From Verrucomicrobiota bacterium (lineage in GTDB: Bacteria; Verrucomicrobiota; Verrucomicrobiia; Limisphaerales; CANJXF01): 26,922 nucleotides of DNA. A program made the translations under genes and the position numbers. The stretch lies in the NCBI GenBank assembly GCA_038214755.1, contig JBBQRQ010000068.1:1-26922 (forward strand). The letters are read 5' to 3'. The notes under the pieces are model-generated. The model did not search any database. It saw only the letters and a list, made by a program, of their open reading frames with translations, and had not been told where the DNA came from. Below, one piece after another: positions 2 through 16,544 of the stretch; the stretch's first letter is position 1, and each line of letters starts with the position of its first letter.

Positions 2-8
2 GTTAGGC
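2..8 (+). other. attC: attC R' core site (rest of the site lies upstream of the window)
   Basis: GTTAGGC at 2-8. GTTAGGCTC (2-10) is the reverse complement of GAGCCTAAC (613-621) at the other end of the cassette. Confidence 0.85.
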
Positions 9-16
9 TCCGACCT

Positions 17-607
17 GTGTTTAGCGAAATCCCTCTTTCCATGTTAGCGCGTATGCGTGAGCTTGAGCAGATTGACCAACGCGATCGCTCAGATGGTACT
101 CCTCATTCGGAGCGCCTGCGGCAGGTTTCGCCTGAGGCGGGCCGTTTTCTCGCGATTTTGGCGGCGATTGCCCCGCCCGGTGAGTGCCTCGAGATTGGGA
201 CGAGTGGAGGATACTCAGCCATGTGGATCGCTCTGGGTTGTCGGGCAAGAGGTGGTCGACTGATTACGTTCGAGACTTCGGAGCAGAAGGTCCGGCTAGC
301 TAGGCAGACGATTGAGCAAGCGCAGATAAGCTCTACAGTAGAGCTTGTGCAGGAAGACGCCTTGGAGCACCTGCCGCGTTTCCAGAAAATTAGCTTCTGC
401 TTCTTGGATGCAGAAAAGGATCTGTATGAGAAGTGCTACGACTTAGTGGTCCCTCGAATGGTTGAAGGTGCTCTTTTGATTGCTGACAATGCGATCAGTC
501 ATCAATCCTCACTTCAATCGTTTATTGATAACACACGCCGCGATAATCGGGTGGACTCGGTTCTTGTCCCGATAGGAACAGGCTCTCTGGTATGCAGGCG
601 CAAATGA
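17..607 (+). CDS. Class I SAM-dependent O-methyltransferase (caffeoyl-CoA OMT-like), cassette 1
   Basis: Motifs LEIGTSGGYSA, FLDAEK, IADNAI; GTG start 8 bp after the core site. Confidence 0.9.
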   Translation: MFSEIPLSMLARMRELEQIDQRDRSDGTPHSERLRQVSPEAGRFLAILAAIAPPGECLEIGTSGGYSAMWIALGCRARGGRLITFETSEQKVRLARQTIEQAQISSTVELVQEDALEHLPRFQKISFCFLDAEKDLYEKCYDLVVPRMVEGALLIADNAISHQSSLQSFIDNTRRDNRVDSVLVPIGTGSLVCRRK

Positions 608-614
608 TTTCAGA

Positions 615-738
615 GCCTAACCAAGCGATGCAGCGAACGACTACCCGCTGTTCGCCCCCCACTTCCCATGACTAAACCATTTCATCTCCGAGCGACGCTT
701 GCTCCCGGTAGGCGTCGCTGATCTTGTTCTCGTTAGGC
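615..738 (+). other. attC: attC site 1 (124 bp)
   Basis: R'' GCCTAAC 615-621, 5-nt spacer, L'' GATGCAGC ... L' GCTGATC, R' GTTAGGC 732-738. Confidence 0.93.
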
Positions 739-751
739 ATCATTCACGCGT

Positions 752-1063
752 ATGGGTTTTAAGATTTCACCGCCGGTTAATGCGATTCTTGGGCCAATGA
801 CTGTATTCGGCATTATTTGGATATCCGTCCACATGCTCGTGCTTCCTACCTTCGAGATCTTCGCGCCGCTTTCGGACGCTACTCGACGACTGGCATTGTT
901 AATCACGGTTTTCGTCGCTGCCGTCGCGGGTTCCGTTTACTCCTTGAGATTTGCACAGAGGGAACGAGCGAGATTGTCGCGGACTGATTTGGGATTCTAT
1001 TGGTTGTTTTGACCGATATTATTTTTCGGCATCTTTGGATTCGGAGTTTATTTGAGTCGATGA
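752..1063 (+). pseudogene. Small membrane protein with an internal TGA at 1010-1012, cassette 2
   Basis: The ORF stops at ...YWLF*, but the same frame continues as hydrophobic PILFFGIFGFGVYLSR to a TGA at 1061-1063, 7 bp before attC. Confidence 0.7.
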
Positions 1064-1070
1064 AGATGAT

Positions 1071-1331
1071 GCCTAACCAAGCGCGAGCCTGTGTGAAAAC
1101 TCAAATCTGGTCATTTTACAAAACGAAAAAGTGGTTCAAATCACTCTCGCCAAAAATAAAAACGCGCCAGAACAAAAATGTGAGCGTCGATTTTTTCATG
1201 CGGCTTGCTCGTGGTGAGTTTTCACACAGGCTCGCGCTGGAGCCAACGCGGTTGAGCCGTTCTGGTTTGCCGGGAAGTCGCGGGTGTGCTTGCGTTTTCG
1301 GTCCGCGTGGCTCAGCTTTTATCCGTTAGCT
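1071..1331 (+). other. attC: attC site 2, interrupted by a MITE (108 bp when reconstituted)
   Basis: Removing 1085-1233 and one GCGC restores GCCTAAC-CAAGC-GCTGGAGC...GCTCAGC-TTTTATCC-GTTAGCT. Confidence 0.9.
1085..1233. mobile_element. 149-bp MITE (ends resemble IS1182/IS5-type termini) inserted in attC2
   Basis: Perfect 19-bp terminal inverted repeats GAGCCTGTGTGAAAACTCA (1085-1103 / 1215-1233), GCGC duplicated on both sides (1081-1084, 1234-1237), A-rich non-coding interior. Confidence 0.88.
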
Positions 1332-1342
1332 GTCAATCGCGC

Positions 1343-1951
1343 ATGCACCCTGATATACCACCGCCATTGCCTCAACCGCCGCGAGTTCCGATGAGCAGCC
1401 GCAGCAAGCTCCTTGTCGGGCTGGCTCTTCTACCGGCATTTCTTGTTGGCGCACTGATTCTGCTTCGCGTTTGCGGACTGGTCCGACCGTTCTCCGTGCC
1501 CACGGGAGCGATGACGCCTGCGGTCTCCGCAGGCGACCACATTGTGATGGAAGGTATGACGTTTCTCTCTCGCCAGCCTCGTCTTGGAGATATTGTGGTC
1601 TTCAAGACCGACGGAATCGCTTCGTTGCCGTCTGCGACGATTTATGTCAAAAGGGTCGCAGGAAAGCCTGGAGACCATGTGCGGCTTTCAGAGGGTAAGT
1701 TGTTCATCAATGACAAGCAGGTGTCACTTAGCAATGTTGTGGGAGAGATTGCCTACGATCTGCCGCCCCGTGTTGGGACGTTTTCACTGCAGACCAACCT
1801 GACAGTTCCAAGCGGCTGCTATTTTGTGCTCGGTGATAATTCGACCAACAGCTTTGACAGCCGCTTTTGGGGTAGCGTCCCGCGCGCGAACATCATCGGC
1901 CGGGTTTCATTTTGTTATTGGCCACCACAAAGAGTCGGAGAAGTAAAATGA
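1343..1951 (+). CDS. lepB: Signal peptidase I (S26) homologue, cassette 3; nucleophile position is Ala
   Basis: N-terminal TM segment, PTGAMTP, GDIVVF, YVKRV, GDNSTNSFDSRFWG. The ATG at 1343 is the first start after the core site. Confidence 0.88.
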   Translation: MHPDIPPPLPQPPRVPMSSRSKLLVGLALLPAFLVGALILLRVCGLVRPFSVPTGAMTPAVSAGDHIVMEGMTFLSRQPRLGDIVVFKTDGIASLPSATIYVKRVAGKPGDHVRLSEGKLFINDKQVSLSNVVGEIAYDLPPRVGTFSLQTNLTVPSGCYFVLGDNSTNSFDSRFWGSVPRANIIGRVSFCYWPPQRVGEVK

Positions 1952-1952
1952 C

Positions 1953-2045
1953 AGCTAACCATGCTCTGCAGCTAACGGCGGCGGGCCATCGCGGTTGCAA
2001 TCGGCGCGTCTCGTGGCCGCCGTCGCTGAACTTGGGTCGTTAGGC
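1953..2045 (+). other. attC: attC site 3 (93 bp)
   Basis: AGCTAAC 1953-1959, L'' TCTGCAGC ... L' GCTGAAC, GTTAGGC 2039-2045. Confidence 0.92.
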
Positions 2046-2073
2046 CGCTTCAAACGCCACGCACATCAAATCT

Positions 2074-2364
2074 ATGAAAACACAAAATACCTCCACCGAA
2101 ACGCACGCAGGAGTCATCCGCGCTGGCGTTATCAGTCTCTTAGTCTTCGCCCTTTGTTATGTCTGGATGACGGGGATTTCGGATACGCCGCGCGCATGGC
2201 TGTTTATCGTTTCTTTCGCGGTCTTCTTTGTCCTCATGATTCAGTCCATCGTTGACTTGCTTATCTTGGTGTTCGGGATCACCGCGAGGTTTTCAGGCAC
2301 GACCATCGGTCGGTCAGTGAGAGTCGTTCGTCGTCTTTTCTCACATGCTCCCAACGCGGCCTAA
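2074..2364 (+). CDS. Hypothetical membrane protein, cassette 4
   Basis: 96-aa ORF with two long hydrophobic segments that fills the cassette; its TAA stop lies within GCCTAAC. Confidence 0.8.
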   Translation: MKTQNTSTETHAGVIRAGVISLLVFALCYVWMTGISDTPRAWLFIVSFAVFFVLMIQSIVDLLILVFGITARFSGTTIGRSVRVVRRLFSHAPNAA

Positions 2365-2450
2365 CCATCGCTGTAGCGAACCCGGCCAACGCGCTGTGGT
2401 TGCAATCCGCGCGTCCCGCGGGCCGGGTCGCTGAGCTTGGGTCGTTAGGC
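2359..2450 (+). other. attC: attC site 4 (92 bp), last site of the array
   Basis: GCCTAAC 2359-2365 ... GCTGAGC-TTGGGTC-GTTAGGC 2444-2450; right half closely similar to attC3. Confidence 0.9.
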
Positions 2451-2500: not shown

Positions 2501-3235
2501 TCACACCGCGCCAAACCGTCGATGACGTCGCGCATATTCTTCGAGCGCGTCGTTGAATTGCGCTTTCCGAAAATCCGGCCAGAGCGTTTGCGTGACGACG
2601 AGTTCGGCGTAGGAAATTTGCCAGAGCAGAAAATTGCTGACGCGCATTTCGCCGCTGGTGCGAATCAATAAATCGGGATCGGGCCACGGGCGCGTGTAGA
2701 GATGTTGCGCAAAAATTTGTTCGTTGATTTCCGCCGGCTCGATGGCGCCGCGTTTTACTTTCGACGCGATCTCGCGCACGGCCTCGACGATCTCCGTGCG
2801 CCCGCCGTAACTCAACGCGAGGATGAGGGTGAGTCCATTATTTTTCGCGAGCGCGGCTTTGGTTTTGGCAAGCTGTTGCTGCACAAATTCGGGCAACCGA
2901 TAAATTTGGCCGATGGCTTCGAGGCGAACGTTGTTGCGATTCAATTCGGGAATTTCGTTTTTCAGAAATCGCGCGAGATATTTCATCAACGTATCGACTT
3001 CATCTTTCGGGCGGTTCCAATTCTCGACGGAGAAAGCGTAGAGCGTTAAATATTTTACACCCGCTTCGCCCGCCGCCCGCACGACCGCGCGCACGGATTC
3101 GACGCCGTGCCGATGACCTTCGACTCGCGGAAGATGACGTTGTTTCGCCCAACGTCCATTGCCGTCCATGATGATGGCGACGTGTTGAGGCAAAACGGCT
3201 TTGGCTTGTGGGGTAAGATGTAAAATAGCGCTCAC
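2501..3235 (-). CDS. uppS: Undecaprenyl diphosphate synthase (isoprenyl transferase)
   Basis: HVAIIMDGNGRWA, YAFSVENWNRP, PDLLIRTSGEMRVSNFLLWQ, RRFG. Confidence 0.97.
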   Translation of the reverse strand: MSAILHLTPQAKAVLPQHVAIIMDGNGRWAKQRHLPRVEGHRHGVESVRAVVRAAGEAGVKYLTLYAFSVENWNRPKDEVDTLMKYLARFLKNEIPELNRNNVRLEAIGQIYRLPEFVQQQLAKTKAALAKNNGLTLILALSYGGRTEIVEAVREIASKVKRGAIEPAEINEQIFAQHLYTRPWPDPDLLIRTSGEMRVSNFLLWQISYAELVVTQTLWPDFRKAQFNDALEEYARRHRRFGAV

Positions 3236-3291
3236 CGAATTTTTTCAGGAAACAGATGGACGACAACCTCGCCGACTACAGGCTTGCCCAT
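3232..3291 (-). pseudogene. Truncated PemK/MazF-type toxin remnant (19 aa, MGKPVVGEVVVHLFPEKIR)
   Basis: ATG overlaps the antitoxin 3' end. The peptide resembles the G(D/E)VVxxPFP first strand of MazF/PemK toxins. Its stop overlaps the uppS start (GTGA). Confidence 0.62.
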
Positions 3292-3470
3292 GCGGCATCC
3301 TCCTCCGGGTGGTTCCAATCTTTGGCGAGGGCGGATTCGCTCAGAAGCAATCCATTGAAATGTTCTTCCTCGTTTTTGAGACGCACGAAACGCGCGAAAT
3401 CATAGACCTCGCGTTGCAACGATTCCGGCAACTGGGTTAGTTCCTGTTCGATTAATTCTCGCGCCCTCAT
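3276..3470 (-). CDS. DUF2281-family putative antitoxin
   Basis: LPESLQREVYDFARF and acidic tail SESALAKDWNHPEEDAAWASL. Confidence 0.82.
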   Translation of the reverse strand: MRARELIEQELTQLPESLQREVYDFARFVRLKNEEEHFNGLLLSESALAKDWNHPEEDAAWASL

Positions 3471-7766: not shown

Positions 7767-8411
7767 TTACTTCATCCTCAGAACCGTGATTTGCCCGTCT
7801 CGTTCCAACGAGACTTCCTGCCGCTCGATTTTCACGACTCGCGCGCCCGCAACCGTTTCCCCCACCCCCAGAGTTTTTCCATTGATCAGCGCGGTTGGAT
7901 TGGAGAGCCGATAAAAAATTCCTTGCAGCTTTAGCGGGGGTGGCGCGGGGGGAGGAATAGGTTCACCCGCTTCTGCCACGCTCTGTGTTGATAATTTTTC
8001 TTCAACCGAACCTGAATTTGCGGAAGGTTGCGTGGAGACAGGTGTGACCTCGGCCGCTATTCTATTTTCCGGCTGCGCAGGAGTAACACTGGGCGCGACT
8101 TTCGTAGCCGCCGACGTGAGGAGGCGGTCTGACTTTTCCTGATTGCTTAAATCACTCCGCCTCCTCACGTCGTCGGCTACGGACTTGGAGTGGATTACGG
8201 TGGTGGAATTGGTCTTCAAACTTTTCCACAGAAAGAAGCCTGCCAGGAGTACGACCAAAGGAATCGCGATCAGTAAGATCGGCGCAAGAGAGGACGATGA
8301 CGATTTGGTCGGCGAAGGATTGGGCAGCATCGGCGCGCCAGCGGATGTGTCGGAAGATTCTTTTTTCTTCGTTTGATTTGCCCTGCGCAGCGCGTCGTTG
8401 ATTAAACTCAT
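7767..8411 (-). CDS. GspB/ExeB-like membrane protein
   Basis: MSLINDALRRA start, one TM helix, Pro/Ser linker, C-terminal LQGIFY...ALING...GARVVKI; overlaps the ExeA stop (ATGA). Confidence 0.75.
   Translation of the reverse strand: MSLINDALRRANQTKKKESSDTSAGAPMLPNPSPTKSSSSSLAPILLIAIPLVVLLAGFFLWKSLKTNSTTVIHSKSVADDVRRRSDLSNQEKSDRLLTSAATKVAPSVTPAQPENRIAAEVTPVSTQPSANSGSVEEKLSTQSVAEAGEPIPPPAPPPLKLQGIFYRLSNPTALINGKTLGVGETVAGARVVKIERQEVSLERDGQITVLRMK
8103..8181. repeat. GTAG-type REP doublet in-frame inside the GspB-like gene
   Basis: 25-bp inverted arms CGTAGCCG(C/A)CGACGTGAGGAGGCGG at 8103-8127 and 8157-8181, one mismatch. Confidence 0.85.
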
Positions 8412-10548: not shown

Positions 10549-10607
10549 CGTTCATTACTTCAATTCAACTGGCCAAAAAAGTCGAGTTCACATCACGAAA
10601 GAAGCAT

Positions 10608-10681
10608 GGGTAGCATCTGCCTCCGGCGGGTGCGAAAAGAATTTTTTTTTTATTCGCACCCGCCGGAGGCAGATGCTACCC
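10608..10681. repeat. REP doublet family A, copy 2
   Basis: Perfect 29-bp inverted repeat GGGTAGCATCTGCCTCCGGCGGGTGCGAA around a 16-nt AT-rich spacer. Confidence 0.92.
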
Positions 10682-10843
10682 CGGAAGATGGTCTCGTTAC
10701 GTTAAATGCTTTTCCCGATGTTTTCGTTTGCGGACATCTTGTTCCTTGTGCGCCAGAGAAAACAACTGAGGTCGGAATATATTTTTACAGCATCGCTCTT
10801 TTGCACCTTTGCGCTCAGGTTATTTCCCGGTAATCTTTGGCGC

Positions 10844-16402: not shown

Positions 16403-16544
16403 CGGGTAGCATCTGCCTCCGGCGGGCGTGGCTAGAATTTTCCCAATTCGATGTTCAGTGTTCGATGTTCAATGTTCGGAAAGGAATTGACATCGAACAC
16501 TGAACACCGAACTGACTCGCACCCGCGGAGGCAGATGCTACCCG
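16403..16544. repeat. REP doublet family A, copy 3
   Basis: Same arms, slightly decayed, with direct and inverted TGTTCRR heptamer runs inside. Confidence 0.88.

Follow-up and report, generated by a model that had tools for sequence, protein, structure and literature searches.

The window analysed here is a 26,922-nucleotide (nt) stretch at the start of contig C68 (JBBQRQ010000068.1) in the genome of a Verrucomicrobiota bacterium (GCA_038214755.1, genome G000 below), and its first 2,450 nt hold an integron cassette array. The second recombination site of the array, attC2, is split by a miniature inverted-repeat transposable element (MITE), and the array begins on an overlapping contig, C36. 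We consider it probable that the locus is a five-cassette array headed by an attI site that lacks an integrase gene (intI), that it is loaded in trans, and that attC2 was split by a MITE owed to an attC-homing transposase of IS1182 type. By window position, the features are:

2..8, + strand: R' core GTTAGGC of attC0, the body of which lies at 44864-44971 of C36
41..607, + strand: cassette 1, O-methyltransferase gene (PF01596, E 8e-21, above cut-off)
615..738, + strand: attC1, 124 nt (60.9 bits with an attC covariance model)
752..1012, + strand: cassette 2, hydrophobic open reading frame (ORF) of 86 amino acids (aa), placed in no family by ORF and family searches
1071..1331, + strand: attC2, its R'' and L'' boxes parted by the MITE (35.1 bits in the present state)
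1081..1084, no strand: 4-bp target duplication GCGC, left-hand copy
1085..1233, no strand: MITE of 149 bp and 42% G+C, its terminal inverted repeats perfect over 19 bp (GAGCCTGTGTGAAAACTCA)
1234..1237, no strand: 4-bp target duplication GCGC, right-hand copy
1343..1951, + strand: cassette 3, homologue of signal peptidase I (PF10502) in which Ala takes the place of the catalytic Ser and Lys is retained
1953..2045, + strand: attC3, 93 nt (48.7 bits)
2074..2364, + strand: cassette 4, hydrophobic ORF of 96 aa, no family above cut-off
2359..2450, + strand: attC4, 92 nt, final site of the array (59 bits)
2501..3235, - strand: uppS (PF01255), convergent with the array, stop codon at 2501-2503

The locus has the marks of an integron cassette array, namely R''/R' and L''/L' boxes, extrahelical bases and co-oriented cassettes with a single ORF each. 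A first-pass annotation of the sequence had proposed four attC sites, and the covariance model and bottom-strand folding bear out their positions and lengths. The rest of the proposed layout also stands: the fifth core site, at base 2, forms the R' end of attC0, which is complete on C36, the four co-oriented genes are confirmed as ORFs, no resistance family was detected among the cassettes, and the array ends 50 nt from the uppS stop. The model was trained on 14 sites from other genomes, in which its pairs covary; these training sites were selected with motifs first noticed in the window, so that the test is only partly independent. There were six matches in the window plus L012 (30.5 kb), the sixth being a weak hairpin at 8112-8172 (15.6 bits), and attC0 on C36 scored 59 bits. 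A split site scores lower in such searches, here 35 bits for attC2 against 49-61 bits for attC1, attC3 and attC4. The sites thus fit the model, and they fold with paired R and L boxes and extrahelical bases: on the bottom strand R'' and R' were paired in all five sites at no more than 0.4 kcal above the minimum. The fold was better than that of shuffled sequences in only two of the five (attC0, z -3.5; attC4, z -4.0), the other three having z of -0.95, -0.27 and -0.4.

The GTT start of each cassette in the window is perfectly complementary to its own R'' (9, 12, 11 and 10 nt, four of four), and the outer pairs of attC2 and attC3 are mismatched in the present arrangement. Together these features are the signature of an integrase that has inserted cassette circles. 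The attC3 and attC4 sites are 73% identical and the remaining pairs of the array 53-66%, giving about three types (0/2, 1 and 3/4), while attC3 is 94% identical to an attC on contig C148. These values make the mixed origin first proposed for the cassettes plausible, and fall short of establishing it. That the array is chromosomal and of Verrucomicrobiota type is supported by its flanks, which are uppS on one side and cdsA-dxr on the other, and by the closest named relatives of the MITE and of cassette 3, which are Verrucomicrobiota.

The insert in attC2 is the most unusual part of the array. The first-pass annotation had reconstituted a 108-nt site and left the nature of the removed insert unstated; the length holds once the insert of 149 nt is taken out together with one of the two GCGC copies, and the insert is the MITE. 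It entered the R''-L'' spacer, 7 nt after R'', and this spacer gives rise to the unpaired central spacer of the folded attC. In place, the MITE forms a 149-nt hairpin between the R and L boxes (fold z -5.0). Inversion of the spacer alone reduces recombination 470-fold, according to the accessible text of PMC2727003, and by this analogy the MITE would likely block recombination at attC2. The 153-nt insertion would then join cassettes 2 and 3 as one travelling unit, bounded by attC1 and attC3.

Further copies of the element and its ends point to the same landing place. Among the six copies or ends in G000 for which flanking sequence exists, four lie at the attC register (in the window, on C24, on C129 and in a transposase remnant on C5/C58), the one on C18 is in a half-like site, and the one on C73 is outside attC. 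In relatives, six of nine MITE matches are at the register and three are not, a match in G009 being left out, although one row of the GTDB set described below has flanks identical to it. The MITE shares with IS1182 elements its 17-18-bp ends (94-100% alike), the 4-bp duplication and the register. From these sequence features, the MITE was likely moved by an IS1182-type transposase homing to the R''-L'' spacer of attC, and such a transposase would have mobilised it in trans. Several observations weigh against this reading and against the block at attC2. The closest copy of the MITE (C73, 97%) is the one outside any attC; against four full-length or deleted insertion sequences (IS) only the 17-18-bp ends are shared, with no internal match; no intact transposase of the group was found in G000 (0 matches at E 1e-40), remnants occurring only on C5/C58, C25 and C3; and the R boxes remain able to pair around the inserted MITE, for a penalty of 1.3 kcal. 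As parent of the MITE, the IS1182 gene of C3 was considered and rejected, since the gene is broken and has different ends. The MITE was also rejected as the mover of the array, no element end being present at either end of the array. It was not found in the plasmids of PLSDB.

The same family of ends was sought at attC sites in GTDB genomes with a pattern made of R'' plus the element end, 6-8 nt from AAC being permitted. This gave 101 distinct insertions, 96 of them at 7 nt from AAC, five at 8 nt and none at 6 nt, in records titled Verrucomicrobiota, Gemmatimonadota, Chloroflexota, Nitrospirota, Acidobacteriota, Cyanobacteria, Deltaproteobacteria and others. The 47 complete elements comprise 35 MITEs (99-160 bp), 11 elements of 1.62-1.72 kb and one of 967 bp. 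A perfect 4-bp duplication flanks 32 of the 47, and an L''-like box, which was outside the search pattern, follows in 40. All six transposases tested exceed the cut-off of NF033551 (IS1182) with 358-450 bits against 270, the nearest named elements to the attC-group transposase being ISPa7 and ISPmo1 (about 48-49% identical). The elements lie in either orientation, four of 13 tree rows running with the cassettes and nine against them. The IS1182 transposase, which we take to be of the DDE type, would read either a left-arm motif of about 18 bp, YTAAC-N3-[4-bp duplication]-TGSAGC, or the unpaired spacer of the extruded hairpin.

The GTDB scan required attC, and three further checks were made free of that requirement. 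An end-only scan of metagenomes gave at least 120 distinct insertions; among the matches listed, 33 of 120 pass the attC rule (13 two-sided and 20 one-sided, one likely false) and four are near misses, and the remaining 83 are outside attC, mainly in other palindromes. The end sequence alone therefore does not imply attC. The 83 include 30 at GGNCC-type duplications and, with the C73 copy, are what would be expected if the MITE were a generalist palindrome-seeker for which attC is one common hairpin target, with no attC-specialised lineage. Palindrome targeting is indeed described for IS1182 members in the accessible text of PMC5678879. We nonetheless regard this as quite unlikely, given that the register is fixed at 7-8 nt from AAC and that only 1.8% of random positions pass the one-sided rule. 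When 301 genomes from the order were searched for the transposase itself, which gave 16 matches, the target type followed transposase identity: six of nine elements at 61-88% identity are in attC (the nine include one tandem, one pseudo-site and one with no readable end), compared with none of seven at 32-46%. Nearly all copies also sit at one attC nucleotide in two genomes that were chosen because each holds one attC insertion. In G061, seven of eight complete elements are at R'', and in G064 all 13 among the matches listed are at R'', loci having been taken for 18 of 33 end matches. On a transposase tree of 28 rows, from which three near-identical G061 rows had been removed, the attC label changes 3 times against 9.0 when shuffled (0 of 500). 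The use of attC tracks transposase relatedness. The generalist explanation can count in its favour that the tree does not establish the attC-inserted elements as monophyletic: bootstrap trees giving a single attC change amount to 0%, and a single origin of attC targeting is no more than possible. Other members of the end family (L169-L289) are found in GGNCC-type repeats and in palindromes like repetitive extragenic palindromic (REP) sequences, each with its own fixed duplication.

The elements described as homing to attC in the accessible text of PMC3001079, PMC11187229, PMC11616780 and PMC12444791 are the IS1111-attC group and the group IIC introns only. The IS1111-attC group (ISPa21, ISPst6, ISKpn4) resembles the present elements in its fixed landing near the 5' end of attC and differs in having a DEDD transposase, a seekRNA and one orientation, as far as the accessible parts of PMC3001079, PMC11187229 and PMC11616780 describe it. 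In contrast, the attC elements found here are of the IS1182 type, have true terminal repeats and a 4-bp duplication, occur in both orientations and include many MITEs; neither an IS110-type transposase nor a single antisense orientation, which define the IS1111-attC group, was found in them. The group IIC-attC introns are likewise attC parasites and come to lie between a gene and its attC, but they are retroelements, enter the bottom strand only and carry an outward promoter, of which none was detected in the MITE (accessible text of PMC3001079). ISPa7, ISPmo1 and IS1272 are similar in their NF033551 transposase, length of about 1.65-1.7 kb, ends, 4-bp duplication and preference for palindromes, while IS1272 differs by replacing stem-loops (accessible text of PMC5678879). 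ISPa7 and ISPmo1 use GGCC-type sites and form a separate, non-attC group in the tree. The 439-bp MITE, or integron mobilization unit (IMU), that flanks class 1 integrons is also gene-less, integron-linked and mobilised in trans, but it flanks whole integrons, whereas the present MITE is inside attC (accessible text of PMC3575428). A literature search that did not extend to subscription papers, ISfinder or supplements turned up no account of an IS1182 element or MITE within attC, and the accessible text of PMC9137128 and PMC3971601 contains nothing on IS1182 in attC.

In some genomes the elements are linked with rearranged arrays. Two full IS1182 copies in attC spacers flank two inverted cassettes in G061 (L388, C3:188500-198000), and the pair shows swapped flanks, L''/L'' and R''/R''. 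A cassette array in G062 (L387, C1:1719000-1731000) has four or five repeated attI-like heads, two of which are preceded by the left part of an attC and a solo IS end; no IntI match was found in G062 at E 1e-30. In G006:C410 (L029), a MITE is all that stands between the left arm of an attC and an attI-like core, which it joins 8 nt ahead of GTT, and this joint suggests insertion beside attI followed by recombination between copies. A second end was lacking in 19 insertions that are followed by 1.8 kb of DNA or more. Among solo IS ends, 27 rows of at least 400 nt were inspected; none of them concealed a second end or, by the rule used, had an attI nearby. Paired elements may invert or truncate arrays without IntI. 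It is possible, if rather doubtful at present, that a lineage of IS1182 has specialised on the arm of the unpaired attC spacer in many phyla, where it would insert in either orientation and lock, invert, truncate or split arrays, and would help to create arrays without integrase and repeated attI heads, the satellite at this locus among them.

The head of the array lies on C36, the end of which is identical to the first 141 nt of the window and is the sole link of either contig end. A contig from run X1 spans 1-724 and starts 99 nt upstream, although X1 may be the source data and hence not independent. The join could be an assembly artefact, the cassettes of the window belonging to a complete integron on contig C31; the assembly breaks exactly at base 1, which implies that the graph branches there, and C31 ends inside its first attC. 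This is highly improbable, as the overlap is exact and unique and the join restores the order uppS...cdsA-dxr, which is direct in 11 of 29 relatives and is found in G005, of the same genus, with the same ORF and attI. At the uppS loci of these 29 relatives, cdsA is 12-110 nt away in 11, 0.8-1.3 kb away in 2 and absent from the available DNA in 16, and in G001, G004 and G008, of the same genus, the two genes are 12-22 nt apart.

Taking the join as real, C36 carries upstream of attC0 a cassette ORF of 127 aa, an attI copy (44412-44471) and an ORF of 90 aa for which no family was found, followed by cdsA and dxr on the opposite strand. The attI copy is 91.7% identical over 60 nt to the site on C31 between intI and the first cassette, and in the five attI-like sites compared the likeness does not reach beyond a stretch of about 60 nt with GTT at its end. 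The IntI on C31 scores 447 bits on TIGR02249 (cut-off 265), has no stops and retains R152, H283, R286, H309 and Y318, which we take to be the catalytic residue set. As regards the two marks of a complete integron, an attI heads the array, judged by its likeness in sequence to the C31 site, and no intI stands beside it, a search of C36 and C68 for IntI giving no match; the upstream look advised in the first-pass annotation thus yielded attI only. Clusters of attC sites lacking an integrase (CALINs) are defined by at least two attC and no nearby intI in the accessible text of PMC4889954, and the array fits the definition, the name that the first-pass annotation gave for the case of an absent intI; what the label passes over is the attI copy at the head and the intact intI elsewhere in the genome. 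The CALINs of that survey are alike in that the genome has an intI at another place, that they hold about five sites and that their cassette genes are unknown, and unlike the present array with its well-kept attI head and the same intI-less head at the locus in a second species; attI was not searchable in the survey, according to the same accessible text.

An attI is recognised solely by its cognate integrase, the accessible text of PMC2095811 states, and on this ground the array is read as a satellite served in trans. It is likely loaded in trans by the one intact IntI of the genome. An intI-attI platform would have been duplicated and its intI lost, leaving an attI head that would continue to acquire cassettes. 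C148 (L014, G000:C148:133-837), where another attI stands with an intI reduced to its 5' 40 codons and at least one cassette, is a decayed duplicate platform, and would represent the intermediate.

The array could instead be a relic, the frozen remains of an old integron that lost intI by deletion, with attI left over and no exchange since. The lack of intI on C36 and C68 is in line with this, loss of intI being one listed route to CALINs (accessible text of PMC4889954), and so is the possibly premature stop of cassette 2. Three results count against a live array and the first two of them for a relic: the run contigs list no excision joint and no MITE-free allele, though contigs cannot exclude them; a scan for the sigma-70 promoter consensus found none ahead of the array and none inside the MITE; and in G005 no clear attC follows the single ORF behind the attI-like site. 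A relic is unlikely, however, considering that the C36 attI and its counterpart in the intact integron are 92% alike although the flanks are unrelated, that the cassette ends remain perfectly complementary, that attC3 shares 94% with the attC found beside a different attI, on C148, and that G005 carries a different gene at the same attI. At the same locus, G005 shares the 90-aa ORF (90%) and an attI-like site (80% over 55 nt), followed by one different ORF, and has an intI-like gene on a separate contig. A loose attI pattern run on 401 genomes matched as often as its control; a tighter pattern found copies in 3 of 10 genomes of the family, one match in G005 being unrelated.

The uppS-cdsA junction is an insertion hotspot. 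In the genus it contains small genes that differ by species (L035, L038, L041, L042), by eye PemK-like and HNH-like, and in L042 an ORF headed by GTTAG. Elsewhere, in G001 (L065, C11:3019-3082), an intI-less attI-like site stands directly behind an ordinary chromosomal gene and is followed by cassette-like ORFs.

In cassette 3, PTGAM aligns with PSGSM of Escherichia coli LepB, the motif presumably holding the catalytic Ser of signal peptidase I, and YVKR with YIKR. The family comprises 507 proteins at E 1e-20; in the 115 homologues with a readable motif the position is Ala in 95, Gly in 14, Ser in 3 and Thr in 3, and the Lys general base is kept in 97 of 120. Cassette 3 is thus likely a conserved, non-catalytic pseudo-peptidase form. 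Three distant homologues in 400 genomes of the class have no attC beside them and so give no ground for calling the family specific to cassettes, and cassette 3 was not found in viral contigs. The frame of cassette 2 stays open for 16 further codons past its TGA (to 1063), so that this stop may be premature, and no homologue of similar length was found. For cassette 4, Pfam matches to MgtE and SpoIISA are below cut-off. No defence families were found among the cassette genes, the sole PADLOC match being that of the methyltransferase domain to mad2.

Upstream of uppS, a 64-aa DUF2281-like ORF (3276-3470, below cut-off) is probably part of a toxin-antitoxin pair. Long near-perfect hairpins occur outside the array at 8098-8181, 10607-10682 and 16444-16514, with chance matches to microRNA families, and an Rfam scan gave no relevant family.

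If IS1182 elements do act on arrays as proposed, they would provide a concrete route to the immobilisation of cassettes, their inversion and the splitting of arrays. Homing of IS1182 to a fixed nucleotide also lets one ask by experiment how a DDE transposase recognises a target that is defined mainly by structure. Finally, an attI that stands without intI among conserved housekeeping genes, and whose content differs in two species, offers a clean case for testing if CALINs live on as satellites of an integrase encoded far away.

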